A stretch of 64,000 nt of DNA from Candidatus Sumerlaeota bacterium (GCA_026398535.1 JAPLSQ010000031.1:4165-68164), one strand, 5' to 3'; positions 8,462 to 42,951 are shown, numbered from the stretch's first letter. Numbers and translations: made by a program. The notes: generated from the sequence alone by a model not told the origin.

Positions 8462-8541
8462 CTTTCTTCATCTGAGTGCTATTATGATGTATATGTGTTT
8501 ATCGGACCCGCCTGATATTAAGCCGAATTGCCAGAATCCCA

Positions 8542-11217: not shown

Positions 11218-11351
11218 GTTTGAGATGGGAAGCTTCTTCAATAACGATGGCCGGAAAGAGCGGATGCGGCAGACAGGACGGATGACACATCCAAGAGGAC
11301 GAAGGATTGGTTTCAAGGGCGTGCCTTCTTTGCCATGTCCCGTGCCATTCG

Positions 11352-14219: not shown

Positions 14220-14234
14220 CTGTTGCTTTCCGCC

Positions 14235-15734
14235 TTAATTTGCATAACTCAATCGTCTTTGGTTCTCGATATATGACGGGACATCGTTCCAGGCAACCGC
14301 GTTCTGAGGGGCATAGTGTTTGACGCTCGACGACATGCGGATGGCTTGGCGCGCGTCGGCCAGCGAACTCATCATGCCAAACGCGCGCGCCTGAACCGCA
14401 AAATTGCCGAGGATTGCGGCTTCGACTGGTCCCGCAAAAACAGGCACACCGCAGGCGTCCGCCGTAAACTGGCACAGCAACTGGTTTTGCGCACCGCCGC
14501 CGAAAATGTGGATGCTGGACGTTGTTCGTCCCAGCGCCTTGTCCATTTCACGCAATGTCCGGCTGTACTTGGCGGCCATGCTCTCCAACGAGCACCTTGC
14601 CAGCGCGCCTTGGGTTTCCGGAACAGTCAGCCCTGTTTCCCGGCAGATTTCCTGAATCGTCTGGATCATGTTAGCCGGCGCGTACAACCGGGGATCATCC
14701 ACGCTGATAAGCGACGCCAATGCCTCGGCTTCGGCCGCTTGTTTTATCAGCTCATCGTAATGAATATCCATTCCGTCCTTTTTCCAAATCCGTCGGCATT
14801 CCTGAAGCAGCCAAAGCCCAATAAAAGTCTTATGGAAACAAATCCTGCCATTCGCGCCGCCTTCGTTGGAAAATCCGAGAGCGAAACTGTTCTCGTCAAT
14901 CAGCGGCTTGTCGAGCTCGGTTCCCATGATGGACCAAGTGCCGCAGGAAATGTAGGCCCACGGTTCAGACTCGTTTTCCACCGGCGCGGAAGCGATGGCC
15001 GAGGCCGTGTCATGGGTTGCCGGAGTAATGACCAGCGTCCCGGCGTCCAGACCAGTTTGTTCCGCAATCTCAGGGAGAATGGGGCCAAGCACTGTGCCGC
15101 AGGGCGTAATATCCCTGAAAATGCGCCGGGGAAATCCCATGCGGTATATAATCTCCTCCTGCCATGTTCCCGTCAGTGGATCGAGAAGCTGTGTTGTCGT
15201 TGCGTTTGTATGCTCACAGGACATGCGGCCAGTCAGCAGGCAGTTGAACAGATCGCCCATTAGAAGAAGGGAACCGGCGCAATCGAGCAGGGGCGACTTT
15301 GAGTGCGCGAGGGCGAGAAGCTGGTAAAGCGTGTTGAAACGATTGAAACCAATTCCCGTCAGCCTGTAGATTTCCTTTTCGGGAAGAATGCCAAAGGCGA
15401 TCTCAGGCATGCCCTCTGTGCGCCGGTCCCTGTAGTGCGCCGGATTGGCCAGAAGTGTTCCATCGCTGGCAAGAAGCCCGAAATCCACCCCCCATGTGTC
15501 AATGCCAATCCCCGCCGCGTGGGGGCCGTGCCGTTTCACAAATTTCGCGATGCCGGTCAGCATCTCCTCATAAATGCAGGCGGCATCCCACTGGTGAACG
15601 CCTTGCATGGTGAGATGTCTGGTTGGGAAACGGTGGATTTCTTCAAACTCAAATCGGTTGGCCGACAGCAATCCGGCAATAGCCCGGCCGTTGCTGGCGC
15701 CAAGGTCAAAAGCCAGGAATCGATGGCTTGTCAT
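14235..15734 (-). CDS. rhaB: Rhamnulokinase (FGGY-family kinase)
   Basis: Start at MTSHRFLAFDLGASNGR (15734), inside the longer track ORF 14235..15962. Motifs GIDTWGVDFGLL, NATTTQL, ATHDTASA, SCGTWSIMG, NEGGANGR, GLWLLQ, IFGGGAQNQLLCQFTADACGVPVFAGPVEAAILGN match RhaB. Confidence 0.85.
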   Translation of the reverse strand: MTSHRFLAFDLGASNGRAIAGLLSANRFEFEEIHRFPTRHLTMQGVHQWDAACIYEEMLTGIAKFVKRHGPHAAGIGIDTWGVDFGLLASDGTLLANPAHYRDRRTEGMPEIAFGILPEKEIYRLTGIGFNRFNTLYQLLALAHSKSPLLDCAGSLLLMGDLFNCLLTGRMSCEHTNATTTQLLDPLTGTWQEEIIYRMGFPRRIFRDITPCGTVLGPILPEIAEQTGLDAGTLVITPATHDTASAIASAPVENESEPWAYISCGTWSIMGTELDKPLIDENSFALGFSNEGGANGRICFHKTFIGLWLLQECRRIWKKDGMDIHYDELIKQAAEAEALASLISVDDPRLYAPANMIQTIQEICRETGLTVPETQGALARCSLESMAAKYSRTLREMDKALGRTTSSIHIFGGGAQNQLLCQFTADACGVPVFAGPVEAAILGNFAVQARAFGMMSSLADARQAIRMSSSVKHYAPQNAVAWNDVPSYIENQRRLSYAN

Positions 15735-15988
15735 GAATCGTCTGCCTCCTGCATCATCGGAATTCAGCCATTCTCTTTGATAACACTGAAGTTCATGATC
15801 GGTTTCTTGAGTGCTGAAAAAACCATATAATTTCATGAATGCGTATATACTATATATACAATTGGCCGCGTCAAGGAAAGAATGCATAAAAATGAATTCG
15901 GGGGAATCGGATTTGGCGATTTCACAAAACAATTTGAAAAAACGATCGAATGTTATTGACAATCGTGCGATGGAGCCTGTCGTATTGT

Positions 15989-16010
15989 AATGTCATGAGA
16001 TAATGACAAT
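15989..16010. promoter_or_regulatory. Inverted repeat aaTGTCAT-gagata-ATGACAat in the divergent rhaB / regulator promoter region; candidate operator
   Basis: Perfect 6-bp arms (15991-15996 and 16003-16008) with a 6-nt spacer, in the AT-rich 350-bp intergenic region between divergent genes. TGACAAT also occurs at 15956-15962. Confidence 0.35.
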
Positions 16011-16085
16011 CAGCCAGGCATGAGCTTGATGGCGATGTTAAACCTCTCGCAATCATGATCTTATGATACGATTCTCTGGACAAAG

Positions 16086-17261
16086 ATGGCAATACAGTAT
16101 ATAGATCAGAAGGCTAATGACAATATGAACAATTCAACAGACAGCATGGTCAAAGAACAGTTCGACACCATTGTTCTGGATCCCGCATCCAGCGAACCGC
16201 TTTATGTTCAGTTGGAGAAGGCGATCATGGACAGAATCCAAGTGTGCCAGTGGATGCCCGGTTTTCGCCTTCCAACGTATCGCAAACTCGCCGAGATGAC
16301 GGGCGTCAGCCTGATCACCGTTCAGCAGGCGGTGAACAACCTGGTGAATCGGAATCTGCTTTACCGGCGGCAGGGCCAGGGCACGTTCGTCGCCACACAG
16401 GAGACGAAGTCCGCCTCAAACCGCATCGCTCTTTTTCTGCCCAACCTGCGCGAACCGTTTTTCTCTGTCCTGGCGCAGATCATCCAAACAGAGATGATCA
16501 ACGATGGATACGCCGTCTCCATTTTTGCCATGGACGATGGCGTTTCCCAGATCGCGCGGGCTGTCGAGCTTATGCGCGATCATGATGTTGATGGCATCAT
16601 CACCACCACCGCAAGCAACGAGGAGACGTTTTCCCAAGTTCTGCGGGCGCGCTCATGGAACATACCGGTCATCATTGTTGACGGGCACATTCCGGGCGAA
16701 GAGATCAGTTACGTCGAGTGCGACAACCACGAGGGAATGACCCTGATCATAGACCATCTTGTCAGCCATGGACACCGGCGCATCGGTTTTGCCTCAGGCC
16801 CATGCTATACTTATGGACTTAAAGCGCGCATGGAGGCTTTCAGTGAGATCATGAGCAAGCGGGGAATCGGCTTCAATCCGTCCTGCCTCCAGATCAGCCA
16901 CCTTGACCGCGACGAAGGCGGCTGGGATGCGGCGCACAAATTGCTGCTTCTTCGCGATCCGCCGACGGCCATCGCCTGCTCCACCGACATGGTCGCGGCG
17001 GGAGTTCTTCGCGCCGCCAGAGCTCTGGGCATAAAGGTGCCCGACCAGCTTTCTGTTGTGGGATTCGATGACCTCTACCTGGCCGCTCATCTTGAGGTTC
17101 CTCTGACCACCATCAGACAACCCGTGGAAAAAATCGGGAAAATCGCCAAAAAAATGATCCTCGAAAGGATCCGCAAAACCTCCAAGTCCGTCATGGAATT
17201 TCACACTCTCCCGCCAAAACTGGTCATGCGCTCGAGTACAGGCCCCGTGTGTGAACCATGA
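16086..17261 (+). CDS. AraR-like chimeric transcriptional regulator (GntR-type winged HTH + LacI/GalR-type periplasmic-binding-protein-like sugar-binding domain)
   Basis: N-terminus LPTYRKLAEMTGVSLITVQQAVNNLVNRNLLYRRQGQGTFVA is a GntR-family HTH. The remainder is PBP1/LacI-like (ALFLPNLREPFF, IITTTASNEE, VPDQLSVVGFDD). Divergent from the rhaB operon. Confidence 0.8.
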   Translation: MAIQYIDQKANDNMNNSTDSMVKEQFDTIVLDPASSEPLYVQLEKAIMDRIQVCQWMPGFRLPTYRKLAEMTGVSLITVQQAVNNLVNRNLLYRRQGQGTFVATQETKSASNRIALFLPNLREPFFSVLAQIIQTEMINDGYAVSIFAMDDGVSQIARAVELMRDHDVDGIITTTASNEETFSQVLRARSWNIPVIIVDGHIPGEEISYVECDNHEGMTLIIDHLVSHGHRRIGFASGPCYTYGLKARMEAFSEIMSKRGIGFNPSCLQISHLDRDEGGWDAAHKLLLLRDPPTAIACSTDMVAAGVLRAARALGIKVPDQLSVVGFDDLYLAAHLEVPLTTIRQPVEKIGKIAKKMILERIRKTSKSVMEFHTLPPKLVMRSSTGPVCEP

Positions 17262-19048: not shown

Positions 19049-19209
19049 TATCGCCCCCGGCATATAAAGCTTGAGGACATGGATCAATAGCCTCATGTGG
19101 CGGCAAAGGTTGCTTGTTCAGACGTCAGCCCATCGGCCTCGCGCGCGAATGAGCAGCCTGCCCCGCATGAGGAATCTGTATGGAATATATGGCAAAAGGA
19201 GAAGATGCC

Positions 19210-19803
19210 ATGCGCAACAATTTATCCCTATCGGCAACAAGGCGGGGATTCACCCTGATCGAGTTGCTGATTGTCGTGGCAATTATCGCCATTCTGGCGG
19301 CCATTGCCGTGCCCAATTTCCTGGAGGCACAGACACGCTCCAAAGTCAGCAGGGTCAAAAGCGACATGCGGGCGCTGGCCGTGGCTTTGGAGTCATACTA
19401 CAGCGACTACAATTGCTACCTCATCGATGCCAACCATTACGTCAACTACTACCCGACCGTGACGCCGATGGATTGGACTCATATCAGGGTTTACAGGCCT
19501 CTTTCCACGCCGGTCGCATACATCACATCAATCCCCATCGACACTTATTTTAATCCGAAATGGGATCTCAATCGCCACTACTTTAATTATCACAACTGGG
19601 ACAAATGGGAACGGGAAAACCTGAGCGATCCGCGCATGCAGGGGGGATCATGGTACAACGAGGGCATCAGGCAGGATTGGTGCATGTACAGCATGGGACC
19701 CAACATGGTGTGGGAGGGCGCGGATTGGTATCCGATCACCATGCAGTATGACCCAACCAACGGCACCGTCAGCTACGGCGATATCAGCCGCTGGGGGCCA
19801 TAG
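19210..19803 (+). CDS. Prepilin-type N-terminal cleavage/methylation domain protein (type-IV-pilin/pseudopilin-like)
   Basis: Start at MRNNLSLSATRRGFTLIELLIVVAIIAILAAIAVPNFLEAQ (class III leader + hydrophobic helix), preceded by the SD-like AAAGGAGAAG. Inside the longer track ORF 19180..19803. Confidence 0.8.
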   Translation: MRNNLSLSATRRGFTLIELLIVVAIIAILAAIAVPNFLEAQTRSKVSRVKSDMRALAVALESYYSDYNCYLIDANHYVNYYPTVTPMDWTHIRVYRPLSTPVAYITSIPIDTYFNPKWDLNRHYFNYHNWDKWERENLSDPRMQGGSWYNEGIRQDWCMYSMGPNMVWEGADWYPITMQYDPTNGTVSYGDISRWGP

Positions 19804-19886: not shown

Positions 19887-21017
19887 ATGAAAAACACACT
19901 TGATCAGCTTGCCGTCTGGCTGAAGCGTTTTGAGCGCGAATATGCCGCTCAATCCGCCGCGGCTGCTGCTGGGAGTTCGTCCCCTTTGGCCGGCAAACTT
20001 CACATCAATATCGAGCGGTCCCTCTGGAGCAAACTGCTTGGCGAACCGCTTGGTCAATATTACGCGCCCCGGCCAGATCCTGCGCGCCAGATTTGCTTCC
20101 AACTGCGCATTCAACTTTTTTGCGGCGAACATTTTCCGCTCTGCGCCGCCCCGCTGCAACGCTTCGTCTTTCCGGATTTCGGATTGACGCTCCTGCCCAG
20201 TCTGTTCGGCGCGCGCCTCATCTATCGCGAAGAGATCGAACCGGCGTGGGAGAACAAAGCGCTCATCGGCGATGATGGGAAACTGCCGGCTTGCCTGCCC
20301 GACTTTGAGCATTCAGGGCTCATGCCGAACGCGCTGGACTGCTTTCGGCGCATGCGCGAACTGCTGGGCGCGGAGTGGCAGATCGGTTTTCCCGATTGGT
20401 GCCGCGGACCACTCGGAACGACCGCCTATTTGCGGGGCGATGAAAACATGCTCACCGACCTGTTGACTGATCCCGGATTTGCCCGGCGCGTTATGGAGTA
20501 CGCTTTGCGGGCGCGTTTTGACTGGCTCAATAAACGCGCGCGTTTTCTGGGTCAGAATTCCCCCGGACCGGCCGTTCTTTTCAACGACGATGTTTCCGCG
20601 GGCAACCTCTCACCCCAAACCTATCGCAAACAGGTGTTCCCGCACGAAAAGCAGTGTCATGAATTTCACGAGGGCAGGATTGGCTATCACAGTTGCGGCA
20701 ACCTTACACCGTTCCTCAAGGATATCAGGTCGCTCGGTCCGCTTGAGTTTTTCCATGTATCCCCCTGGACCGATCTGGATGAAGCCGTCAAAGTCTTTCA
20801 TCCGGACACACGCTTGTTTGTGGCGCTCCATCCCATGCGCGACGTGCTCGGCGCTACAGGCGGGGAAACGCGCAAGCGTTTGCGAACAATCAGGGAGCGA
20901 TGCTCGGGCGGCCCTTTCACTGTGCTGATGACGGAATTGATGAGTTGCGGCGCCCCTGCCGAGGATCTGGCAGCCATCCAGCGCGCCGTGGAGATCGCGG
21001 CGGAAGTCTTGTGTTGA
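19887..21017 (+). CDS. URO-D family-like protein (second copy); function unknown
   Basis: 376 aa; GYHSCGNLTPFLKDIRSLGPLEFFHVSPW resembles the URO-D/MtaA C-terminal region. Assignment weaker than for 7475..8461. Confidence 0.5.
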   Translation: MKNTLDQLAVWLKRFEREYAAQSAAAAAGSSSPLAGKLHINIERSLWSKLLGEPLGQYYAPRPDPARQICFQLRIQLFCGEHFPLCAAPLQRFVFPDFGLTLLPSLFGARLIYREEIEPAWENKALIGDDGKLPACLPDFEHSGLMPNALDCFRRMRELLGAEWQIGFPDWCRGPLGTTAYLRGDENMLTDLLTDPGFARRVMEYALRARFDWLNKRARFLGQNSPGPAVLFNDDVSAGNLSPQTYRKQVFPHEKQCHEFHEGRIGYHSCGNLTPFLKDIRSLGPLEFFHVSPWTDLDEAVKVFHPDTRLFVALHPMRDVLGATGGETRKRLRTIRERCSGGPFTVLMTELMSCGAPAEDLAAIQRAVEIAAEVLC

Positions 21018-24885: not shown

Positions 24886-26043
24886 TTACGGTAAAATAAG
24901 CGCCTGTGATGCGACGCTGTCAGCGTGGCTCAATGCGCTGCGGCAGGCCGCGGTGCTGGATCGAATGATGAGTTCGGGCGCAAGACTGCGGGTTTCCCTC
25001 TCGGCGGTTCCAGTTCCATGAAGCCTTGCCAGCAACAGATCGACCGCTGTTTGCCCGATGTCGTTGACGGGCTGTCTGACAGTTGTGAGAGGAATTTCGA
25101 GGTGGGAGGACAGTTCGAGATCATCAAAGCCGACGACGGACAGTTCGCCGGGGCATTCCACGTCCAGTTTTCTTGCGGCGCGCATCACTCCCACCGCCGC
25201 CAGATCGTTTGAGCAGACAATCGCCGTGGGCGGCTCGCGGAGCGACAGCAATGTGTAACCGGCGTTCTCGCCGCCGTCGTCGTCCGGCAGGTGGCTGACC
25301 TGAAGCAAAGGCGGCGAAAAGTCTAATCCCCGTTCCGCAAGCAGTTCCTGGAACGCCTGCATTCTTTCGCGGACGCCTTGGGTGAGAATCTGGCAGCATG
25401 CGAAACCGATGCGTTTGTGACCGAGACTCGTCAGATGGTCCAGGACGAGTTCCATGCCCAGCCGGTTGTTGGTTTCCACATAATCAAAACCTTCATGGGA
25501 CGATTTGCCGTCGACAAAGACGATGGGTATCCGCCTTTTCAGAACCCCCGAGAATTGAAAACTGAAATGCTCGCTGATTGTGGGGCTTGTGATGATGCCA
25601 GCCACATTTTGCCGAAGCGCCAGATCAACGACATGATACGCCCTGGAAGGATCGGCTTCCAGTGAATACATGGTGATGGCGTAGCCTTGGCGGTTGGCAT
25701 GGGTCTGGATGACATGCGCCAATCCCGAAAAGAACTGATGCCGGACATCAGGAAGCAACAAACCGATGATTCGCTCCTTGTGCGATTGATGACCGTCCGG
25801 GACGAAAACGCCAATGCCACGTTTACGCGACAGTGTGCCTTCTTTGATCAGACTTCCCACCGACTGTTGAATGGTGATCATGCTGACTTTGGTCAGCTTG
25901 ACCAGTTCGTTGTAGGAAGGCAACTGGTGTCCGGGTTTCCACTCGCCCGATTCGATTTTCGCCCTGATCGCCTTCGTTATCTGCACATGGAGCGGTTCGT
26001 CCAAATGCCGATTGATCACAATATCCCAATCATTGATTGTCAT
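24886..26043 (-). CDS. AraR-like chimeric transcriptional regulator (GntR-type HTH + LacI/GalR-type sugar-binding domain), paralog of 16086..17261
   Basis: LPSYNELVKLTKVSMITIQQSVGSLIKEGTLSRKRGIGVFV HTH; PBP1 body (IIGLLLPDVRHQFF, VPDGELSVVGFDD). Divergent from the 26544 operon. Confidence 0.8.
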   Translation of the reverse strand: MTINDWDIVINRHLDEPLHVQITKAIRAKIESGEWKPGHQLPSYNELVKLTKVSMITIQQSVGSLIKEGTLSRKRGIGVFVPDGHQSHKERIIGLLLPDVRHQFFSGLAHVIQTHANRQGYAITMYSLEADPSRAYHVVDLALRQNVAGIITSPTISEHFSFQFSGVLKRRIPIVFVDGKSSHEGFDYVETNNRLGMELVLDHLTSLGHKRIGFACCQILTQGVRERMQAFQELLAERGLDFSPPLLQVSHLPDDDGGENAGYTLLSLREPPTAIVCSNDLAAVGVMRAARKLDVECPGELSVVGFDDLELSSHLEIPLTTVRQPVNDIGQTAVDLLLARLHGTGTAERETRSLAPELIIRSSTAACRSALSHADSVASQALILP

Positions 26044-26227: not shown

Positions 26228-26543
26228 TTCCTCGTTTCCCAAGGGAGCTTGGCATGTCATGCTTACATGAAAATTATATATTGGCATGCAAACACACGGT
26301 TTATCCCCGGGAATAATGTGTTTCAGCGTCGGGCAATGGCATTTTATTCTTGACTCAATCCCAATATCATCCGAGCACTACGCACATGAAGTTCATGATA
26401 GTGTTGGGTTTCACCAATGTTTCCATTGTTTATGTATAAACCTCAATTTTGATGATGCTTGATCGGCTCAATGAAAGCCGGTGGCTGTTGGTTGCGGGCT
26501 TTTATTGAGGTCGATGGGAGTCTTGCGATAAGGAGAATGAAAG

Positions 26544-27704
26544 ATGATGGATCGAGTGGGACGGATCAAGATGCCTGGAACTCTGCTCATGGGCATAGGC
26601 GCCGTTTCGGAACTGGCGAAATCGGTCGAGTCGCTTGGAGGACGGAGGGTTTTGGTTGTTGCCGATCCCGGAATCGTGCAGGCGGGCGTGGTGGACAAGG
26701 TCAATGCTGTTCTTGAAGCAAAACAGATTGCCGTGAGCGTCTATGACGGCGTCGAGTCTGATCCAAGACTGGAGATTGTGTCTGATTGTGCGGAAAGGGC
26801 TCGCCAGGCTGGTGCGGATGTTCTTATCGGCGTCGGCGGCGGCAGCTCCCTTGATATCGCGAAAGTGGCGGCCATCGTGGTCAGGCATGGCGGTCCCGTC
26901 CAAAGGTTTTTCGGGATTGGAAACACGCCCGGGCGCGGTCTTCCAACCATTGTGTTGCCCACAACCGCTGGAACAGGTAGCGAGGTAACGCCAATCGCGG
27001 TCCTTTCCGATGAAGCTGAAAAGCTGAAGAAAGGTATTGTGAGCGACGACCTGTATCCCGACATCTCAATTGTAGATCCCGGCCTCATGGTCAGCGCTCC
27101 GCCTTCAGTAACCGCATACACCGGCATGGACACTCTGACCCACGCGATTGAGGCATACACCAGCCGTTATTCGCTTCCCTTTGTGGACACGCTGGCCCTT
27201 GAGGCAATCCGGCTTGTTGGCCGTCACCTGCGGCGGGCCGTGTCCAATGGCTCCGACCTCGAAGCCCGTTCCGGCATGGCGCTTGCCAGCACTTATGGGG
27301 GAATGTGTCTGGGTCCCGTGAACACGGCCGCCGTTCATGCGCTGGCGTATCCGCTCGGTGGCACATACCATGTCGCTCACGGCCAGGCAAATGCCTTGTT
27401 GCTGCCATATGTGATGGAGTTCAATTTCCCGAGCGACATGTGCAAGTTTGCGGAGGTGGCGAAAGCGCTTGGGGAAAAAATAGAGGGGCTTTCCCTGCGC
27501 GATGCCGCGCTGGCATCCGTGAAAGCGGTCAGGGAATTATCGATTGATATTAATCTGCCGCAAAAGATGCGGGAATTCAGCATCCCTGAGGACGCCATCC
27601 CCGAGATGGCGGAAGCGGCGATGAAGGTCACGCGGCTGCTCAATAACAATCCCCGCACGGTCAGGATCGACGATGTGCGGCGAATCTATGAGCAGGCGCA
27701 CTAA
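26544..27704 (+). CDS. Iron-containing (group III) alcohol dehydrogenase; lactaldehyde reductase / 1,2-propanediol oxidoreductase-like
   Basis: GGGSSLDIAKVAA, TTAGTGSEVTPIAVL, GMDTLTHAIEAYTS, LLPYVMEFN match Fe-ADH (FucO-like) signatures. SD AGGAGA lies 7 nt upstream. Confidence 0.85.
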   Translation: MMDRVGRIKMPGTLLMGIGAVSELAKSVESLGGRRVLVVADPGIVQAGVVDKVNAVLEAKQIAVSVYDGVESDPRLEIVSDCAERARQAGADVLIGVGGGSSLDIAKVAAIVVRHGGPVQRFFGIGNTPGRGLPTIVLPTTAGTGSEVTPIAVLSDEAEKLKKGIVSDDLYPDISIVDPGLMVSAPPSVTAYTGMDTLTHAIEAYTSRYSLPFVDTLALEAIRLVGRHLRRAVSNGSDLEARSGMALASTYGGMCLGPVNTAAVHALAYPLGGTYHVAHGQANALLLPYVMEFNFPSDMCKFAEVAKALGEKIEGLSLRDAALASVKAVRELSIDINLPQKMREFSIPEDAIPEMAEAAMKVTRLLNNNPRTVRIDDVRRIYEQAH

Positions 27705-29042
27705 ATGCCTGTCCGAGCGCGATATGCCCCGGGAAATTCCTGCCAGGAGAATTCTTTGAAGCGGGAACATCAACTTCCCATGATCGCGAAAGCGAGGCGC
27801 GTTTTTTCTGACAACAGCTTGGATGATCCAAACGACCGTCTGCTGGAATTGCTCAGGGCGTCGCATCTCCAAGAGGTGAATCTTGACGGGAAGACAATCG
27901 CGGTCCCTGTCGGTAGCCGGGGGATTACGGGCCTTTGCGGTTTGTTGCGCGTCTTGATTGATTTCCTGAAAAGCAGGGGAGCGGGCCCTTATATTGTTCC
28001 CGCGATGGGAAGCCATGGCGGCGCCACCGCCGAAGGGCAGTTGAAGGTGCTGTCGTCACTTGGCGTCACAGAGCACAATCTTGGGATTCCAATCAAAGCC
28101 ACAATGGAAACCGTCAGTCTTGGCAGGGTTCGCGGACGTGAATTCGTGTGGCCGGTCTATCTGGACAAGCATGCGGCTGAAGCTGATGGGATCATCCTGA
28201 TGAATCGTGTCAAGGCCCATACGGATTTCAGCGGATCGTATGAAAGCGGGCTTGCCAAGCTGCTGGCGGTTGGGCTTGGCAATGAAGACGCCGCGCGAAG
28301 CGCCCACTCACGCGGGACGGCGGGTTTGCGTGACGCCATCCCCGCACTGGCGGAATTCTTGCTCCAGACGAAACCGATTTTGGCCGGTGTTGCGATTGTC
28401 GAGAATGCCCTTCACAAGATCGCCGCCTTGGAAGTTCTGCCTTCTTCGATGATTCTGCCGCGCGAACCCGGACTGCTTGAAATCTCCAAACAATGGATGG
28501 GCGCCCTTCCCGTGACGGAACTTGACGGACTGGTGATCAGCCGGATGGGCAAGGAGATCAGCGGGACAGGCATCGACACAAATGTCATTGGAAGGCGTTC
28601 GATTCGCGGAGAAGCCGATCCAGCCTGTCCCAACATTGACCTTATTGGCGTCTGCGATCTTACGCCGGCATCCGAAGGCAACGCTTTGGGAATTGGGCTT
28701 GCGGACTTGACCACCTCCCGCGTTGCGGCTCAATATAACCCGGCGGTCACAGCAAGGAATGTGCTGTCAACGACATTCATCGAGCGCGGCAAACTGCCGC
28801 TCGTTCTGCCCACGGACCGCAACCTTGTGGAAGCGATGGTCGATTTGATCGAACGAAAAGGCGCGAAACGCCCCCGGATCATGTTCATCCGCGACACGAT
28901 GACCCTGTCGGAATTCTATATGACGGAGTCGCTTGTGAACAAGGTCATAGCGGGGCAGGACATCACCATCCTTGAAAAGTTAAAACCAATACCATTCGGA
29001 CCCGGAGATTGTCTGGCGTTGGAATGGCACGAGAACGATTGA
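27705..29042 (+). CDS. LarA-like protein (lactate racemase / DUF2088 family; nickel-pincer-nucleotide-dependent racemase/epimerase superfamily)
   Basis: Blocks VPAMGSHGGAT and DKHAAEADGIILMNRVKAHTDFSGSYESGLAK align by eye with LarA (ATGFHR and KVAAEADLLISEGFIESHFFAGFSGGRK regions). The ATG overlaps the ADH stop (TAAATG). Alternative start at 27780 (MIAKARR). Confidence 0.55.
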   Translation: MPVRARYAPGNSCQENSLKREHQLPMIAKARRVFSDNSLDDPNDRLLELLRASHLQEVNLDGKTIAVPVGSRGITGLCGLLRVLIDFLKSRGAGPYIVPAMGSHGGATAEGQLKVLSSLGVTEHNLGIPIKATMETVSLGRVRGREFVWPVYLDKHAAEADGIILMNRVKAHTDFSGSYESGLAKLLAVGLGNEDAARSAHSRGTAGLRDAIPALAEFLLQTKPILAGVAIVENALHKIAALEVLPSSMILPREPGLLEISKQWMGALPVTELDGLVISRMGKEISGTGIDTNVIGRRSIRGEADPACPNIDLIGVCDLTPASEGNALGIGLADLTTSRVAAQYNPAVTARNVLSTTFIERGKLPLVLPTDRNLVEAMVDLIERKGAKRPRIMFIRDTMTLSEFYMTESLVNKVIAGQDITILEKLKPIPFGPGDCLALEWHEND

Positions 29043-29062
29043 ACGGAAAGGAGTCTGGTCAT

Positions 29063-30541
29063 ATGACAACGACAATAGGAAACACAAGTTCTGAGGTTCA
29101 CCCGATTTACATCAACGGCGAGTGGGTGGAATCATCCGGCGGAAGGACCTTTGAACAGCGCAATCCGGCGTGTTTGTCCGAGATAACCGGATGCTTTCAG
29201 GCATCCACGGCGGATGATACGCGAAGGGCGATCGATGCCGCGGAGCAGGCCTTTCCCAAATGGCGCGACACGCCGCCCCTGGCAAGAGCTGAAATCCTGA
29301 AGAAAGTTTTGGCGAAGATGATTGAGCGCAGGGAGGAGATTGCCCGCGTGCTCACGCTCGAGAACGGCAAGCTGCTCAGCGAGTCGCTGGGCGAAATCAA
29401 CTCCGCGATCAGGGAAATGGAGTTCCAGATTGCCGAAGGCGTGCGCTCGCTTGGCGAAGTCATGCCGGTCAGCATGCCGGGAGTGTTGGCGTATCATACC
29501 CGCCAGCCTCTGGGTGTTGTGGGAATCATCACGCCATGGAATTTTCCGTTCAATGTTCCGACGCGCAAGTGTGCTCCAGCCTTGATGGCCGGCAACACCT
29601 GCGTCTTTAAGCCGGCAAGTTTAACGCCGCAGACCGGCCTGCGCTTCACGGAGTTGTTCACCGGGGCCGGATTGCCGCCGGGCGTGCTGAATTTTGTCAC
29701 AGGCGGTCCAAGGGATGTGGGTGACACAATTGTCACCGATCCGCGGATCAAGGCGATCTCGCTGACAGGCTCGACGGATGTCGGCATTCAGATCAATGAG
29801 AAGGCGTCTTCCAGGCTTGCCCGAACGCAACTGGAGCTGGGAGGAAAAAACCCTGTTGTTGTTTTGAAGGATGCCAATCTTGATGACGCGGTCAACGCAA
29901 CGGTCACGGCGGCGTATGCGTGCGCCGGGCAGTGGTGCACATCGACGAGCCGCGCCATTGTGGCCCGTGAGATCGCCGGGGAATTCATCCAGCGCGTGAT
30001 TCAGAAAGCCGGCGCCCTGCGGGTGGGAAACGGTCTCGATGCGGAGACGGGGATGGGGCCTGTTTGCGGCACGGCACAAATGAGGAGCATCCTGGCTTAT
30101 ATCGAAAAGGGTCTGCAGGAGGGCGCCAAGCTTCTTCTCGGTGGAAAGCAAATGACAGATGGAGCCTGCGCCGACGGATGTTTCATCGAACCGACGGTGT
30201 TCGGAGCGGTCACGCCGGAGATGACGATCGCGCAGGAAGAAATATTCGGCCCCGTCTTGTCCGTCATCGAGTTTGGGAGCCTTGACGAGGCCATCGAAAT
30301 AGCCAACGGCGTCAAATACGGTCTGGCCTCTTCAGTGTTTACGAACAACCTGAAGAGCGCATTGACGTTTCTTGAGCGCACGGAGGTTGGGCTGACGCAT
30401 GTCAACATGGTGACCGCCTACAAGGAGCCCCAGCTCACCTTTGGCGGCATCAAGCAATCAGGCCATGGCATCCCCGAAGCGGGAAAAACGGGGATCGAAT
30501 TCTTCACAGAGCACAAGGTCGCCTACGTCAAATACTCGTGA
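29063..30541 (+). CDS. NAD(P)+ aldehyde dehydrogenase (lactaldehyde dehydrogenase-like)
   Basis: Start at MTTTIGN with SD AAAGGAG, inside the longer track ORF 29009..30541. ALDH signatures ELGGKNP (catalytic Glu region), GQWCTSTSR (catalytic Cys), ITPWNFP and EEIFGPV. Confidence 0.9.
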   Translation: MTTTIGNTSSEVHPIYINGEWVESSGGRTFEQRNPACLSEITGCFQASTADDTRRAIDAAEQAFPKWRDTPPLARAEILKKVLAKMIERREEIARVLTLENGKLLSESLGEINSAIREMEFQIAEGVRSLGEVMPVSMPGVLAYHTRQPLGVVGIITPWNFPFNVPTRKCAPALMAGNTCVFKPASLTPQTGLRFTELFTGAGLPPGVLNFVTGGPRDVGDTIVTDPRIKAISLTGSTDVGIQINEKASSRLARTQLELGGKNPVVVLKDANLDDAVNATVTAAYACAGQWCTSTSRAIVAREIAGEFIQRVIQKAGALRVGNGLDAETGMGPVCGTAQMRSILAYIEKGLQEGAKLLLGGKQMTDGACADGCFIEPTVFGAVTPEMTIAQEEIFGPVLSVIEFGSLDEAIEIANGVKYGLASSVFTNNLKSALTFLERTEVGLTHVNMVTAYKEPQLTFGGIKQSGHGIPEAGKTGIEFFTEHKVAYVKYS

Positions 30542-30624: not shown

Positions 30625-33600
30625 ATGAATTACATGCTTTTCACCCTCACCCTGCTGATGTTGGCGGCGTGTGCGTTGCATGCCCAGCCAGCCTTGGGCG
30701 TCGGCGTTACTCTCGTCGAGTCGAAGGATAAAAAGTTCCTTGTTCGAACGGGCGGATTTGAATTCTCCTATGATGGAAGCAAGGATGACCACATCACGGC
30801 AAGGAATCCAAAGCCGGGGGGGGGCTGGATTGAGGTCATCGGCGCTCCGGGCGAGAATCTCTATCCCCTCGAGCATTCCATTGTCAGATCGGTGGAAACA
30901 ACAGAAACCGCGGCTGATATTCTGGTGCGGATTGATTCCGCCCGCGAGTGGGCTGATTTCAAAACAACCGTGCGATTTCCAAAGAATGTTCCTGGTCTGG
31001 TCAATTGGAAGGTTGAACTGTCCGCCAAGTCGAAGGGCTTTCTTCCCACGACTGATTTCGACGTTCTGTTTGGTGATTATCCCGTTCAGTTCAAGGATCT
31101 CGGCCGGCACAATCCCGCGCAGGTCCCGCTTGTGTACTTTTATGAGGGCAAGCTCGATGCCACATGCCTGTTCTATGAAGATTATACCGCGCTTAACCAG
31201 TATTACATCATGACGGACACCCGCCCCGCCGGTGCCGTGGGCGCCAACTTGCCGATAAAAACGCGTCACACAGGAAAACCATCCGAACAGACACGGGCTG
31301 GCTTTGGTTATAAAAGACCGTCCTCCGATCACATATTGCCGCCGCAATCACAGTGCACAATCACCGATTCCTATTGTTTCCTGAAATCGTCCGAACCGGC
31401 GGACGAGTCGGCAATGTGCGGCCAATTTCTTGAATGCCTTGCGGACATTTATCCCTACATGCTCAAGCCTGCCACTGTCTATACCGACTGGCCGACGATA
31501 GCCGGTTATCAGATCAGGGATCTCCAATCACCCGAATGCTGGACGCGCGAGTTCAACGGGCGCAGGCACCTTCTTCCCTATGTCAACCACAAGGACAGTG
31601 GGGCGAATGATCTGAGAACCGAGCTTCAGAATCTCGCCCCCCTGGTCACCTTCAACCGATCATTTGCCAATGAAATTTCGCGGAAATTTGAAGAGCAACT
31701 GGTCGGGAACATCAAGGATTTCCATGTTCCGCAGACCCGCATGATTGAAAACATGATCACCAAGCCTGGCGACAAAAGCGTTCAGGACAGCTTTTACCCG
31801 GCGATCAACGCCATCATGTTTGGAAAGGTGATTCTCAGGGGCGTCGATGATCCGCAATTGAAGAGAATGCTTCTGGAATTCGCCGATGTGACCATGAAAA
31901 CAGGGAGAAAGCTGAATTACACGTTCGCCTGGCAGGTTGATTGGCTATCAGGCGAGATCGTCAACGAGTCATTCTGGCAATACGATGTCGGCGGCGCATT
32001 GGCTTATTTTTTCCTGCAGTGCCACCAGATATCAGGCGACAAGAAATATCTTGATGAAGCAAAGGTCGCCGTCGAGAGCATCAAAGGGCATGGCCTCGCT
32101 CTTCCGCACGAATTGGACTGCACGGCTGCTGCTGCCGCCGCATGCGCCTGGCTTTATAATATAACGGGCGACAAACATTACTTGGATCTTGGCGCAATTG
32201 CCGTCGCCAATGTCATGCGGCGGGGGTGGTTCTGGCAGAGCGAGTATGGCTATGCGAAATACTATCGGATGTTCTTTGGGCTGTCGTTCTCTAAAGAAGG
32301 TCCACAGATCGCGCCCCTCGAGCTCCTCGGATGCTGGGATATGCTGTCGGAGTATTACCGGCGGCTTTCCGGCGTTCTTCCAGCGGAATACCATGTCCTG
32401 TTGCCGGAGTTTCACAAATGGGTCCTGACGGACATGCGTTATGTTTATCCTCCATTGGTGCCTGAGGACGCGGTTGCGCCCGGGCCGGCAGGCTGGCCGG
32501 TCAATCCCAGGCTGTACGTGGCGCTTGAGGATATGAATGATGGGCATACCCGTCTCGGCACGGTGGGGCAGGGGATATACATGTCGCGCGCGGCTATTGA
32601 ATTTGCGGCCTCGGCTTACAGGCGTTTTGAGAACGGCCCCATTCTGTTCTGCGAATATCCAATCATGTCGGCTTCCTATGACAGCCAGTTGGACATGTTG
32701 CGTTTCACAGTCGGAGGGCTGAACAATTATCGATGCAAGGTCAGGGTGCTGTATCCGCAAAAACTGAACGACGATGTCAGGCCATTCCTTGCCACGAACG
32801 CGTTGCCGGCGATGCTGTTGGAGGGATCGTCCCATGAGGGACAGACGCTCTGTTTCGAAGCGCCTGGCGGCGCCGAGGTTGTCGCGGGTCCCGGCCGGCT
32901 TCTCCGCCTGCAAGCTTTGATCAGCAATCTGAAACTGCTGGCTCAATCCGCCGCCGCGGACGCAACGATCAAGAAAGAACTCTTTGATTCTGAGGACTTG
33001 CTGAGCAGGACCATGACCCTGACAAGCGATCCCAGAAAAGAATTTCATGAGTGGCTTGCGGCCTTCGACAAGCTCTCCATCCGTTTGCGGGAGATGGATG
33101 GCAGAGAGAGTGTCACGGAATGTCTCAGCGCGATGCGCGATCTGGCCGCGGAGGAAAGCCAGCGGTTGTTGGGAATCCGCTTTGACCTGAAGATAAACAA
33201 GACGGAATGGGCTGAGGGAGAGCCTGTGAAAGCTGTCGCGGCATTGGATGTCAGCCCCGGTGTTCAGCTTGAGAAGGCAGATATCTCACTCAAGACGCCG
33301 GTCAGGTTCCGGGTGACACGAGACGGGAATTCATTCCAAGTCTTCTTTCCTGATGACTACCCATTCAACAAGCCGGCGCAAATCGAAGCGCGTATGTCCT
33401 GCGAGTACATGGGCGCTCCGGTTGTCCTTAGACGCACATGCGACGTTAAGCGTGTGGCGGCGTTCACATTCCTCATCGCCAGCACATCGGGCGATTTTGC
33501 GACCCAGGGTAAGAACTATGACATTCAGGTGAAAGTGACAAACAACGCTTCTGTGCGGCGGGACGCGGAACTGAAGCTCAAGTTGCCGAAGGATTGGACA

Positions 33601-34221
33601 TCGTCCTGCGGTCTTTCTCGGCTTGTTCTTAATGCCGGTGAGGCAAGGGATGTCACACTGTCGCTGACGCCCGGAGCTGCCGTGCCCGACGGCAAGTGCG
33701 AGATCGAGCTTGTGCTGATAGCTGGGGGTGCGCCGGTGGCATCGCGATGCTGCGTGGTTGAGGCAGTTGCCGTCCATGGTGCATTTCGCGACGACGGACG
33801 GGACGCCTCGCTCTGGAAGGAATCCCGCTATGGGCCGCCAGTCCCTGTTGAGTCAAAAGACGGCAGGCTCGTGTTCGGCCCCAGGGACGGCGGCTTTGGT
33901 GTGCGCGAGCGTGAAGTCTGCATCGATCTTGATCATTACCCAATCCTGAGCATAAAGATGGATGCGGCAAGCGCTCTTTGGGCGATATTCCTCGACGATG
34001 GCAGGCACTTCCCGGAACTCGGGCTTCGTGTTCAACAGGAGACGTGGCAGACAGGCGTTTTTCATTATGATCTCAGGAAATCCACTGGTTGGAAAGGCAT
34101 CAATAAATTCAATCTGCGTTTCGTGACCAGCATATGGGGAAAAGACCGGACCTGCATACTGGATTGGATCACCATCGACAAAGATGCTGTAACAACAGAA
34201 CCAGTCGTCAGTGACAAATAA
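30625..34221 (+). CDS. Large secreted protein (1198 aa) of unknown function
   Basis: Signal peptide MNYMLFTLTLLMLAACALHAQPA; no recognisable catalytic motif by eye; 83 bp downstream of the aldehyde dehydrogenase on the same strand. Confidence 0.75.
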   Translation: MNYMLFTLTLLMLAACALHAQPALGVGVTLVESKDKKFLVRTGGFEFSYDGSKDDHITARNPKPGGGWIEVIGAPGENLYPLEHSIVRSVETTETAADILVRIDSAREWADFKTTVRFPKNVPGLVNWKVELSAKSKGFLPTTDFDVLFGDYPVQFKDLGRHNPAQVPLVYFYEGKLDATCLFYEDYTALNQYYIMTDTRPAGAVGANLPIKTRHTGKPSEQTRAGFGYKRPSSDHILPPQSQCTITDSYCFLKSSEPADESAMCGQFLECLADIYPYMLKPATVYTDWPTIAGYQIRDLQSPECWTREFNGRRHLLPYVNHKDSGANDLRTELQNLAPLVTFNRSFANEISRKFEEQLVGNIKDFHVPQTRMIENMITKPGDKSVQDSFYPAINAIMFGKVILRGVDDPQLKRMLLEFADVTMKTGRKLNYTFAWQVDWLSGEIVNESFWQYDVGGALAYFFLQCHQISGDKKYLDEAKVAVESIKGHGLALPHELDCTAAAAAACAWLYNITGDKHYLDLGAIAVANVMRRGWFWQSEYGYAKYYRMFFGLSFSKEGPQIAPLELLGCWDMLSEYYRRLSGVLPAEYHVLLPEFHKWVLTDMRYVYPPLVPEDAVAPGPAGWPVNPRLYVALEDMNDGHTRLGTVGQGIYMSRAAIEFAASAYRRFENGPILFCEYPIMSASYDSQLDMLRFTVGGLNNYRCKVRVLYPQKLNDDVRPFLATNALPAMLLEGSSHEGQTLCFEAPGGAEVVAGPGRLLRLQALISNLKLLAQSAAADATIKKELFDSEDLLSRTMTLTSDPRKEFHEWLAAFDKLSIRLREMDGRESVTECLSAMRDLAAEESQRLLGIRFDLKINKTEWAEGEPVKAVAALDVSPGVQLEKADISLKTPVRFRVTRDGNSFQVFFPDDYPFNKPAQIEARMSCEYMGAPVVLRRTCDVKRVAAFTFLIASTSGDFATQGKNYDIQVKVTNNASVRRDAELKLKLPKDWTSSCGLSRLVLNAGEARDVTLSLTPGAAVPDGKCEIELVLIAGGAPVASRCCVVEAVAVHGAFRDDGRDASLWKESRYGPPVPVESKDGRLVFGPRDGGFGVREREVCIDLDHYPILSIKMDAASALWAIFLDDGRHFPELGLRVQQETWQTGVFHYDLRKSTGWKGINKFNLRFVTSIWGKDRTCILDWITIDKDAVTTEPVVSDK

Positions 34222-34309
34222 CAATTCCACCCCGGCCGCGCGCATCATACCGGGGAAAGGCCGCTATTGATTGCGGGTTTGCGGGTAATTTGCGCATATG
34301 GCTTTTAAA

Positions 34310-34393
34310 TGCCGGGACGGGGATTTGAACCCCGACGGGATTGCTCCCGCCAGCCCCTCAAGCTGGTGCGTCTGCCAATTCCGCCATCCCGGC
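34310..34393 (-). tRNA. tRNA-Leu (anticodon GAG)
   Basis: Reverse complement folds as a cloverleaf: acceptor GCCGGGA/TCCCGGC + discriminator A, anticodon stem CCAGC/GCTGG with loop TTGAGGG (GAG), long variable arm, T-loop GGTTCAAATCC. CCA is not encoded. Confidence 0.85.
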
Positions 34394-34469
34394 ACAACTG
34401 CGGGGCCGCTTTGTTTTGGCCATTCGGCTTATACCTTGACCCGCAACAATTATTTCATGCGATCCGGGG

Positions 34470-40857: not shown

Positions 40858-42951
40858 TCAGCGGTTCTCGATCATTATCACAGCAGAACGGGCGGGAATC
40901 AGGAACCGGCCGTCGCACGGAGCGGCAACATGATTTTCCGGTGTTGCCCGTTGAAAGCGTTTGGCGCTGTTTGTTCGCGCACGACCCTCAAGAATCTTGG
41001 CGCTGTTATTCGCGATCAAAATGGCAAGCTTCCCGTTTTTCAGATTTCTGAGTACGCTGTAAAGCGGGTGGGGGGTGTCATCCACTGTCACTGATGCCCC
41101 GATTGTGCTTTGGAATTTCCCGTCCCAAAGATAATCGCTGAATTTCCGTCTTAGCGCATCCACCTTCGTGCCATATTCCACCGACAGGGGCATTTCATCA
41201 AGATGACCCTGAAAATTTCTCGGTTCATAACAGATGGCGTAGCGATAGAGAAGGCATAAATTAATTGTTTCGCGGTCATCATAACCATAGACCCAATTGA
41301 CCATGGGCAGAGCGGGGGAGAGGTAGCGGGTCACGGGGATGTGGCTGTCGAGGGTCCTGTGATAAGCGATGTTGTAATGGCGGTATTGCAGGTCATAAGG
41401 CCCTTCACCGGCAAGCACGGGCACAGCGGAGTATTGTTTGAGAAGACTGACGAGTTTTTTTTCAAAGACGGCATCGCCCGCAAAGTTGTAAGCGGGCATG
41501 CGATGTCCGTGTGATGTGTCAAAACAATAGAACGCGTTTCGGCCATGCCACATGGATTCGTCGAGCAGGATGCCATCAGGTTCCAGGAGCAGGCTTTTTT
41601 CGATTTGATCGAGCGCGATGTCCTGCCATTGGGGGCAGTTCATGCACATCCACGCATAAGGGCGTGTGTTGATCCCCGAAAGATGGGCGGGCGTATGGTA
41701 TTGCCAGCCTTCGTGTCCGTGGATATTCCCGAAGATGTCCTTGCTGGCATACTTGTGAAGCTCCATTTTATACCATTCGGTCCCGACATCCACACATGTG
41801 TATTTTTCATAAAGGATGACTTTCACGCCCATCCGTTGGATCTTTTCGATGGAGCGCTTGAGTTCTTTCCATGTTCCCAAACGGGGATCCGTCTCATGAA
41901 TCGGGAGCCTCCCGTCCTGCCCGTATAATGTCCATCCGACGATATGCAATACCCCGACGTTGTGGATTTTGCATTCGTGTCCGAAATCAACGAGTTGTTT
42001 ATAAGGCACACTGAGCGAGTCGCCCCATGAGTTCATCTGGATCATCTGCCACGAGTGCACATCTGCAGCCCAGGCCGGCGCCAGCGGCTGTTTCATCCAA
42101 GTCTTGCGCCATCGATTATAAATATCCGCGCCAGCCTGCCAGGTTCCCTTATACGGTTTAAGAATGATTGGGCTTGTTTCGCGGCATTCGCCCGGCTGAA
42201 TAAACGGATGATGCGCCGCCTTGAACTCGATGTGCGCGTCTTGGCTGCCCAGGCTGTCGTTGGGCGGAACATGGGGCGGCGTCGTGTACCCGGGTTTCAA
42301 CTCGAGGACAAACTCGGCGCGTGCCTGTGCGCTGGTATCATGGCATCCCGCATAAAGACCCTGCTCCTTGCTCTGTATGAGCATGAATGGGCTTTCGGGC
42401 GTTGCAACAATCTGAATTGGATATTCGGTTCCCCAATAACCGCGTTCATTTTCAAATTTTGGATAGATCTGTTTCGTGTAAAGATTGCAGTATCCCATGT
42501 GCGCTCGCGACAGAACTTCTCCTGGCGTCGGATTGCGCAGATCGCCAATCATGGGATAAAAAACCGACTCAACCGGATAGCGGGAGCAGTTGTTGATTTT
42601 AATTTCAAATTTAAGTCCGCCATTGGTCAGTGTCACCGTGGCCGTGATTTTGATGTCCAGCGCGCCCGTGTGCTGGCTGACAACATGATCCCAGTAGAAA
42701 GAGATTCGTTGGGGATTGTCCTCCTGGCTGATGAGTGGGGCATTTTGCCTCACGCCAGCGATCCTGTGCATAAGGCGTTCTGGAAGAGGCGCAATCATCA
42801 AAAATGACTGGGCCAGATGCGCGCGCCCTTGAATCTGCCAAGTTGTTTTATGATCTGTGAACTGCACGAGCGCGCCGTTTGTGGCATCGAAGACGGCACA
42901 CATTGCCTTGTTTTCGAGTCGGATAAGATTGCATGAATTGTTTTTTATCAT
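40858..42951 (-). CDS. Hypothetical cytoplasmic protein (~697 aa), possibly a glycoside-hydrolase-like TIM-barrel protein; function unknown
   Basis: Start placed at MIKNNSCNLIRLENK (42951), inside the longer track ORF 40858..43170 and overlapping the stop of the upstream gene (ATGA). The His/Arg-rich N-terminal extension in the track ORF looks non-genuine. Last gene of the long minus-strand glycan operon. Confidence 0.65.
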   Translation of the reverse strand: MIKNNSCNLIRLENKAMCAVFDATNGALVQFTDHKTTWQIQGRAHLAQSFLMIAPLPERLMHRIAGVRQNAPLISQEDNPQRISFYWDHVVSQHTGALDIKITATVTLTNGGLKFEIKINNCSRYPVESVFYPMIGDLRNPTPGEVLSRAHMGYCNLYTKQIYPKFENERGYWGTEYPIQIVATPESPFMLIQSKEQGLYAGCHDTSAQARAEFVLELKPGYTTPPHVPPNDSLGSQDAHIEFKAAHHPFIQPGECRETSPIILKPYKGTWQAGADIYNRWRKTWMKQPLAPAWAADVHSWQMIQMNSWGDSLSVPYKQLVDFGHECKIHNVGVLHIVGWTLYGQDGRLPIHETDPRLGTWKELKRSIEKIQRMGVKVILYEKYTCVDVGTEWYKMELHKYASKDIFGNIHGHEGWQYHTPAHLSGINTRPYAWMCMNCPQWQDIALDQIEKSLLLEPDGILLDESMWHGRNAFYCFDTSHGHRMPAYNFAGDAVFEKKLVSLLKQYSAVPVLAGEGPYDLQYRHYNIAYHRTLDSHIPVTRYLSPALPMVNWVYGYDDRETINLCLLYRYAICYEPRNFQGHLDEMPLSVEYGTKVDALRRKFSDYLWDGKFQSTIGASVTVDDTPHPLYSVLRNLKNGKLAILIANNSAKILEGRARTNSAKRFQRATPENHVAAPCDGRFLIPARSAVIMIENR

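Follow-up and report, generated by a model that had tools for sequence, protein, structure and literature searches.

The closest described relatives of the enzyme considered here belong to the LarA superfamily, which is associated with the cofactor nickel-pincer nucleotide (NPN). Desguin et al. 2020 (Sci Rep 10:18123, PMC7583248) sorted 354 LarA homologs into 25 groups, and their Dataset S2 lists Rxyl_2987, Bcoa_1745, Cagg_0419, and BMD_3424 as members of 'Group 22'. We analyzed a 64,000-nucleotide (nt) stretch of DNA from Candidatus Sumerlaeota bacterium (GCA_026398535.1, JAPLSQ010000031.1:4165-68164), hereafter called the window, in which three same-strand open reading frames (ORFs) fill positions 26544-30541. 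Profile comparison and a predicted model assign the product of the middle ORF to the LarA superfamily, and profile and motif comparisons place it as a new member in the known group 22. The three genes are as follows.

26544-27704, + strand: iron-containing (group III) alcohol dehydrogenase (Fe-ADH, or ADH), 386 amino acids (aa); Pfam Fe-ADH and ADH_Fe_C
27705-29042, + strand: LarA homolog group 22 (LarAH22), at most 445 aa; NCBIfam NF052515
29063-30541, + strand: NAD(P)-dependent aldehyde dehydrogenase (ALDH), 492 aa; Pfam Aldedh, 544 bits, E = 2e-163

LarAH22 of the window shares the residue signature of group 22, passes the NCBIfam model for that group, and is 41% identical to Rxyl_2987. The published neighbors of the group, namely short-chain dehydrogenase/reductase (SDR), LarE, tripartite ATP-independent periplasmic (TRAP) transporter, FGGY kinase, IclR, and ROK genes, were also met in the loci assembled here; however, the published context table (PMC7583248 Table S1) lacks Fe-ADH and ALDH partners as well as the association with PdxA-like and DUF1537 kinase genes reported below. 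Within group 22, the window protein falls in a sub-clade marked by Ala350-Arg351, with ADH and ALDH as the flanking genes.

Compared with lactate racemase LarA of Lactiplantibacillus plantarum (5HUQ), the modeled protein has the same two-domain fold (Foldseek E 3e-7, template modeling (TM) score about 0.5) and retains the pair of catalytic His residues, the Arg, the Lys that tethers the cofactor, which lies within an S-G-x-x-K motif, and the nickel-binding His 16 residues beyond. However, the two proteins are only 13-15% identical and were not connected by sequence or profile search; the C-terminal domain of the window protein carries a GKxxSGTGxDTNxxGR motif and, unlike LarA, has no Pfam LarA_C match. 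The D-gluconate 2-epimerases GntE1 and GntE2 (LarAH groups 19 and 20) likewise belong to the LarA homologs; their substrates are hydrophilic sugar acids, their specificity loop is polar, and their neighbors include SDR, sugar kinase, and uronate genes; however, their loop is Glu-Val or Glu-Ser, their helix signatures are different, they fall in other groups, and no NCBIfam profile match of the window protein to GntE1 or GntE2 was found.

Two further systems resemble the surroundings of the gene. At the Escherichia coli FucO/AldA branch point, an Fe-ADH and an ALDH act on one aldehyde to give an alcohol or an acid, whereas the ADH and ALDH of the window score under the FucO and AldA model cut-offs. 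The E. coli fucO and aldA genes are not known to share an operon with a racemase gene. The two gene types of the D-threonate pathway, encoding the DUF1537 kinase DtnK and PdxA2, are the top partners of group-22 genes and are clustered with ALDH and Fe-ADH genes in Bacillota; however, both are absent from the window. DtnK and PdxA2 reportedly convert D-threonate or D-erythronate to dihydroxyacetone phosphate (DHAP), and this pathway as published is not known to include an epimerase step.

We propose that the trio is one catabolic operon in which LarAH22 inverts the C2 configuration of a small polar 2-hydroxy acid supplied by ALDH, a reading that we consider probable, with some reserve. That the three genes belong to one operon is clear.

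The assignment to group 22 was obtained with NF052515 ('nickel pincer cofactor-dependent isomerase, group 22'), which the window protein passed with 442.2 bits against a cut-off of 400; the alignment spans residues 25-414 of the protein and positions 2-389 of the 392 in the profile. The remaining NCBIfam matches were two malate racemase models only, far under their cut-offs, and no lactate racemase NCBIfam model was passed. In addition, the Group 22 members of PMC7583248 Dataset S2 share sequence motifs with the window protein. At E <= 0.001, approximately 5,800 proteins match it, and many of its close homologs carry a precomputed PF09861 or PF04015 match. An AlphaFold2 (AF2) model built from 33 homologs reached a predicted local distance difference test (pLDDT) score of 91.9. 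When this model was compared with the PDB using Foldseek, all 19 matches with E < 1e-3 were LarA-family structures (9eia as the best with 4.5e-11, and 7s91, 9q3j, 8ezf, 2yjg, 4nar, and 5huq among them). These LarA alignments were full length, with approximately 420-450 columns and an identity of 12-16%, and the model has the two-domain LarA fold. The NPN-dependent aldo-keto reductases described in Nat Chem 2026 have a fold unrelated to that of the LarA-like protein.

Residue numbers of LarAH22 count from the start at 27705, and equivalent positions were taken from PMC7583248 Dataset S2 and then from the alignment of Rxyl_2987 with the window protein. At LarA D72, R75, H108, H174, F175, F176, K184, H200, Y294, Q295, V297, and K298, group 22 has A, R, H, H, T, D, K, H, D, T, V, and I, respectively (PMC7583248 Dataset S2), and the window protein has V69, R72, H104, H172, T173, D174, K185, H201, D291, T292, V294, and I295. 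Both catalytic His residues are kept, as H104 (LarA H108) and H172 (LarA H174). The cofactor-binding residues are also kept, as R72, K185, and H201, equivalent to R75, K184, and H200, which bind NPN in LarA (PMC11770544). R72, H104, H172, K185, and H201 are invariant in 87 homologs, and the invariant S181-G182-x-x-K185, G190, and H201 mirror S180-G181-G182-R183-K184, G189, and H200 of LarA. An alignment made with hhalign placed three His residues in agreement with the mapping from the published table but aligned the Lys wrongly, onto E180.

Next to these residues, the order of the trio itself is conserved. We compared the surroundings of group-22 genes in 86 genome-derived loci (L004 and L007-L091, up to 5 kb) and 80 metagenome loci (L092-L171, up to 6 kb). 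Two metagenome contigs, L089 and L090, carry Fe-ADH, LarAH22, and ALDH in the order seen in the window, with identities to the window proteins of 61%, 51-54%, and 62-63%, respectively; one of the two was binned by NCBI as Candidatus Accumulibacter, and in one an IclR regulator comes next. In Bacillota, the three families recur rearranged: Brevibacillus (L021) has, in this order, DUF1537 kinase, DctPQM, LarAH22, ALDH, Fe-ADH, PdxA-like, and a glyoxylate/hydroxypyruvate-reductase-like gene, and Alkalihalobacillus (L033) has the cluster described below. A Bdellovibrionales locus (L041) holds Fe-ADH, D-2-hydroxyacid dehydrogenase, and LarAH22. Because the trio recurs in unrelated lineages, its order is beyond chance, and the conservation of the trio supports a functional tie between LarAH22 and the ADH and ALDH on either side of it. 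The metagenome scan was aimed at the sub-clade of the window; the relatives among the matches listed reached at most 46% identity, and no new close trios were found among them. The closest relative, P0002 (72% identity), says little on context because it lies on a 1.9-kb contig and its upstream gene is not an ADH gene. The planctomycete relatives P0011, P0007, and P0016 are stand-alone genes with uninformative neighbors.

A sequence-only reading of the window had placed an Fe-ADH, a LarA-like gene, and an ALDH in this order at 26544-30541 and had linked the middle gene to the flanking dehydrogenases. The order and positions held, as three ORFs on the + strand; the LarA-like label agrees with the NF052515 match, with the exclusively LarA-family fold matches of the confident model, and with the residues of the published table, including K185, H201, H104, and H172; the link is borne out by the conserved trio.

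The family-wide neighbors indicate the type of pathway in which group 22 takes part. PdxA-like genes (17/86 genome-derived and 12/80 metagenome loci) and genes for D-threonate-kinase-like DUF1537 proteins (16/86 and 11/80) are the commonest neighbors, present in approximately 15-20% of the loci and nearly always on the same strand. In the same order of loci, we found TRAP transporters in 9/86 and 1/80, mannonate-oxidoreductase-like SDR in 10/86 and 8/80, FGGY kinase in 7/86 and 3/80, Fe-ADH in 10/86 and 2/80, ALDH in 6/86 and 1/80, UxaA-like dehydratase in 4/86 and 1/80, and GlcD-like oxidase in 4/86 and 2/80. The PdxA-like, DUF1537, TRAP, SDR, and FGGY neighbors indicate that the family sits in sugar-acid catabolism. 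The D-threonate-kinase-like and PdxA-like proteins score under the equivalog cut-offs.

Genes for making the cofactor also accompany the family, a strong link in genomes other than that of the window. A number of the 86 loci have verified lar genes no more than 10 kb away (LarE in 14/86, LarB in 10/86, and LarC in 12/86), and in Neobacillus operons, LarE (TIGR00268, 367 bits vs 150) comes after the group-22 gene. The LarE co-location agrees with the 30% LarE association given for group 22 in the published context table (PMC7583248). The most complete association with pathway and cofactor genes is L033, from a metagenome-assembled genome of Alkalihalobacillus macyae (JAENYN010000004.1), in which positions 4372-16916 hold a single-strand cluster in the order DUF1537 kinase, DctP, DctQ, DctM, PdxA-like, LarAH22, ALDH, Fe-ADH, LarE, LarB, LarC1, and LarC2; this locus is a good model system.

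Several observations weigh against the proposed C2 inversion. Concerning the family, Pfam Lar_N (PF09861, DUF2088) matched the window protein below threshold (21.1 bits vs gathering 23.3), and DUF362 scored about equally, also below threshold (21.7 vs 24). A phmmer search of the PDB with the protein and an hmmsearch with the 33-sequence alignment recovered no LarA, and hhalign of the LarAH22 family against three LarA sequences gave a probability of only 26%. Because the PDB sequence and profile searches found no LarA, the NCBIfam model, the fold search, and the published alignment were needed to link LarAH22 with LarA. The only matches in those searches were transcription activator-like (TAL) effector repeats, which we rejected as spurious. 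A large protein search that started from L. plantarum LarA yielded no homolog below 77% identity and no bridge to LarAH22. Concerning the function, group 22 is given as 'Unknown function', with no measured activity (PMC7583248 Table S3). In place of the residues that hold the substrate carboxylate in LarA (Y294, Q295, and K298), the window protein has D291, T292, and I295, as throughout group 22, and groups without K298 might run another hydride-mediated reaction instead of inversion (PMC7583248). Concerning the cofactor, no lar gene lies within the 64-kb window, as the sequence-only reading had observed for larB, larC, and larE. The Pfam scan, which covered plausible-gene ORFs of at least 200 aa and left out shorter ORFs nested on their opposite strand, did not find them, and tblastn of verified LarB, LarC1, LarC2, and LarE against all six frames of the whole window gave noise only. 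With none of the three in the window, the genome must carry larB, larC, and larE at another site if LarAH22 uses NPN. Finally, the ALDHs of the Bacillota trios are only 35% identical to that of the window, and these trios carry Asn-Glu at 350/351 vs Ala-Arg in the window; because of these differences, the tetronate context of the Bacillota may not transfer to the window protein.

Some of these points would fit a different chemistry, in which NPN-bound LarAH22 carries out a hydride transfer other than C2 inversion, for example, internal redox isomerization of a 2-hydroxy-aldehyde or 2-hydroxy acid, or in which the protein uses no NPN and is DUF362-like. The missing equivalents of K298, Q295, and Y294 speak for it, a possibility raised for such groups in PMC7583248, as do the NCBI family name, which says only 'isomerase', and the DUF362 score that equals the Lar_N score. 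However, both catalytic His residues of the two-face chemistry are invariant, as are the NPN-binding Arg, Lys, and His, and lar genes are co-located with the family. In addition, G296-R297, which directly follow the K298-equivalent I295, are invariant across homologs and could take over the binding of the carboxylate. We regard a different chemistry as very unlikely.

C2 inversion remains the preferred reaction, and the flanking enzymes bear on its substrate. The sequence-only reading had called the ADH FucO-like, had pointed to the reduction (FucO) or oxidation (AldA) of L-lactaldehyde in 6-deoxyhexose catabolism, and had suggested racemization or epimerization of lactate or another 2-hydroxy acid. 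On this model, L-lactaldehyde derived from fucose or rhamnose would be reduced by ADH in the manner of FucO or oxidized by ALDH in the manner of AldA to L-lactate, and LarAH22 would be a lactate racemase feeding a D-lactate dehydrogenase. FucO and AldA do fall within the ADH and ALDH families, and the description of the ADH was right at that level; at the equivalog level, it failed. Models for choline dehydrogenase, lactaldehyde reductase, sulfoacetaldehyde reductase, and ErcA each gave the ADH approximately 330 bits, far short of their cut-offs, and the ADH reached no NCBIfam equivalog cut-off (for FucO, TIGR02638 329 vs 523 and NF007911 308 vs 537). Its nearest PDB relative is methanol dehydrogenase 8zrl, followed by the 1,3-propanediol oxidoreductase DhaT 3bfj and then by FucO. 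The best NCBIfam model for the ALDH was the alpha-ketoglutaric semialdehyde dehydrogenase GucD (526 bits vs a cut-off of 770), and the AldA model was likewise not reached (NF007497, 360 vs 500); in the PDB, the ALDH is approximately equidistant from betaine-aldehyde, sorbosone, glyceraldehyde, and lactaldehyde dehydrogenases. A specific lactaldehyde function draws support from neither enzyme.

The substrate pocket points in the same direction. In lactate racemases, LarA positions 175, 176, 358, and 359 are F, F, W, and E or Q, respectively (PMC11770544), whereas the window protein has T173, D174, V353, and L354, so that its specificity loop is hydrophilic, Thr-Asp vs Phe-Phe. Meanwhile, GlcD-like and Fe-S oxidases adjoin a few group-22 genes (L027 and L032), and a D-2-hydroxyacid dehydrogenase is present in the Bdellovibrionales locus; such neighbors are frequent for lactate racemases, and glycoside hydrolases are abundant in the window. 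However, none of the fucose or rhamnose pathway genes was seen adjoining the operon, and the family-wide neighbors are sugar-acid genes. The link to 6-deoxyhexose, lactaldehyde, and lactate accordingly gained no specific support, and we judge that lactate racemization has little in its favor; the substrate of LarAH22 is probably not lactate. A short 2-hydroxy acid of hydrophilic character is the more likely substrate, be it a C3-C4 aldonic acid (glycerate, erythronate/threonate) or an acid with a second anionic group. Our order of preference among the candidates is C3-C4 aldonic acids, then 2-hydroxy acids with a second anion, and then lactate.

Among the aldonic acids, the neighbors of the family call attention to tetronates. 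LarAH22 would then be a 2-epimerase of C4 acid sugars, converting D-erythronate to D-threonate or L-threonate to L-erythronate; the epimer would supply the DUF1537 kinase and a PdxA2-type decarboxylating dehydrogenase leading to DHAP, and ADH and ALDH would bring tetritols or tetroses to the level of tetronate. Erythronate and threonate of the same series are interconvertible only through a C2 epimerase. The high frequency of PdxA-like and D-threonate-kinase-like neighbors in both sets of loci argues for this substrate, and L021, L033, L053, and L060 put those genes in a cluster with ALDH and/or Fe-ADH. However, no DUF1537, PdxA-like, or DctP gene is present in the window, and its ALDH differs from the ALDHs of those clusters to the extent given above. 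In addition, the residue pair equivalent to LarA P355/D356 is Asn350-Glu351 in loci that include the tetronate module but Ala350-Arg351 in the clade of the window, a difference that reverses the charge in the predicted substrate pocket. For the window protein itself, tetronate epimerization is therefore unlikely, and the substrate of its clade may differ from that of the Bacillota loci with the tetronate module.

The charge reversal would fit another substrate. Arg351 hints at a second anionic group, as in malate, tartrate, 2-hydroxyglutarate, or sulfolactate, which ALDH would produce from an acidic semialdehyde and whose second anion Arg351 would bind. The Ala-Arg pair is kept in the clade of the window (the window, L089, L090, and two planctomycete genes that stand alone, L004 and L091), and Arg351 also in rows of the homolog alignment, whereas other clades have Glu, Ala, or other residues at 351. 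The best ALDH scores were to alpha-ketoglutarate-semialdehyde and succinate-semialdehyde dehydrogenase models, and malate racemases bind their second carboxylate with a positive residue of the same helix (PMC11770544). However, the argument has a single residue in a predicted pocket as its basis, the closest relative P0002 has Ala-Met at 350/351, and the operon flanks contain no sulfoquinovose, tartrate, or glutarate genes. We regard a dianionic substrate as quite unlikely. It is conceivable, if on the doubtful side, that the clade with Thr173-Asp174 and Ala350-Arg351 and with Fe-ADH and ALDH at its flanks is an NPN epimerase or racemase for a substrate new to this cofactor, such as a tetronate or an anion-substituted 2-hydroxy acid (for example, tartrate or sulfolactate).

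Returning to the proposed operon, the reaction, order of steps, and substrate class that we infer for NPN-dependent C2 inversion would most likely be as follows. The Fe-ADH would form an aldehyde by oxidizing a small polar alcohol, or would run in the reverse direction as an overflow route, and the ALDH would oxidize that aldehyde to a 2-hydroxy carboxylic acid. LarAH22 would then invert the configuration of this acid at C2 to suit a stereospecific downstream enzyme. By a mechanism of the LarA type, the NPN cofactor, held by R72, K185, and H201, would accept the C2 hydride to form a 2-oxo intermediate; H104 and H172, on the two faces, would take turns as acid and base, and the hydride would go back to the opposite face.

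The ends of the genes were examined together with the leader. AGGAGA at 26531-26536 precedes the ADH ATG with a spacing of 7 nt, and AAGGAG at 29048-29053 precedes the ALDH ATG with a spacing of 9 nt; the ALDH start lies 20 nt beyond the LarAH22 stop. The sequence-only reading had described the ADH stop as overlapping the start of the LarA-like gene, which did not stand, as the TAA at 27702-27704 abuts the ATG at 27705-27707 with zero shared bases and the start is itself ambiguous among ATG 27705, TTG 27756, and ATG 27780. In favor of 27705, the orthologous operons L089 and L090 carry ATGCCTACTGA, and their ADH gene ends with ATGCCT inside it; the LarA-like gene there begins 11 nt within the ADH gene, whereas the window has TAA and then ATGCCT. 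In favor of TTG 27756, this codon was used in the public gene call (P0001, 428 aa), and AGGAGA at 27745-27750 precedes it with a 5-nt spacing; however, with 20 copies on the window's + strand, the hexamer is weak evidence. In favor of ATG 27780, the N-terminus of the NF052515 profile and of the homolog alignment falls here. Residues 1-18 of the long ORF were modeled by AF2 at pLDDT <50. Translational coupling between ADH and LarAH22, which the sequence-only reading had put forward, is no more than possible. Two features lie upstream of the trio.

24886-26043, - strand: divergent regulator with a GntR-type helix-turn-helix (HTH) and a LacI-like periplasmic-binding (sugar-binding) domain; Pfam GntR, Peripla_BP_1, and Peripla_BP_3
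26462-26515, + strand: hairpin of approximately 19 bp in the 500-nt leader, approximately 30 nt 5' of the ADH start; RNA fold

Judged solely by its position, the regulator likely controls the operon. The hairpin has a folding energy of -38.6 kcal/mol (z = -4.5 vs shuffled sequence) and could be an attenuator or a terminator, for example, of a transcript from upstream; an Rfam search of the leader including the hairpin found no match, and scans for promoters and terminators gave matches no more frequent than in shuffled sequence.

Downstream, 83 nt past the ALDH stop, a 1198-aa ORF (30625-34221, + strand) begins with a hydrophobic, signal-peptide-like N-terminus (MNYMLFTLTLLMLAACALHAQ). It has no Pfam match and lies outside the conserved trio in other genomes; its product may be an uncharacterized carbohydrate-active enzyme co-transcribed with the operon. 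Between this ORF and the enolase gene lies a tRNA-Leu gene (anticodon GAG; 34309-34394, - strand), the sole RNA gene found in the window.

Four more large ORFs without a Pfam match (709-1021 aa) lie on the - strand, at 8542-11316, 11352-14219, 42948-45077, and 48327-51392. They are candidate novel polysaccharide-degrading proteins because they are set among glycoside hydrolase family 2 (GH2) glycosidases, sugar ATP-binding cassette (ABC) transporters, and sugar kinases. The third overlaps the long ORF at 40858-43170 on the same strand by 222 nt, and the downstream ORF of the pair, which encodes a DUF6259 protein, probably starts later than its longest-ORF start. The regulator at 24886-26043 has a paralog at 16086-17261 (+ strand), each with a GntR-type HTH and a LacI-like sugar-binding domain. 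In a window with many giant glycosidases, a protein with a prepilin-type N-methylation motif is encoded at 19180-19803, and a uroporphyrinogen decarboxylase (URO-D) family protein at 19887-21017 (+ strand), between that protein and a 1256-aa GH2 protein. Taken together, the two regulators, the N-methylation-motif protein, and the giant glycosidases suggest an organism of the Planctomycetes-Verrucomicrobia-Chlamydiae (PVC) superphylum (Verrucomicrobiota, Lentisphaerota, or Planctomycetota). Among glycosidase genes, the URO-D family protein is an unusual companion; its fold is also found in methyltransferases.

For the window itself, the meaning is modest, namely an ordinary catabolic operon with an enzyme of a known, uncharacterized family. 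Of the LarA-homolog groups that still have the entry 'unknown function', group 22 is one of the larger, and its conserved neighbors (three lineages with Fe-ADH and ALDH, approximately one sixth of the loci with PdxA-like and DUF1537 kinase genes, and one cluster that adds larE-larB-larC) shorten the list of substrates; the short list for the whole group consists of commercially obtainable compounds and is testable. If the clade of the window does act on a substrate new to the cofactor, it would define a compact route from an alcohol through an aldehyde and a 2-hydroxy acid to its C2 epimer, common to PVC-like bacteria, Betaproteobacteria, and Bacillota. If a tetronate or similar activity were demonstrated, it would be a new reaction for nickel-pincer enzymology and would add an epimerase step to the catabolism of four-carbon acid sugars.

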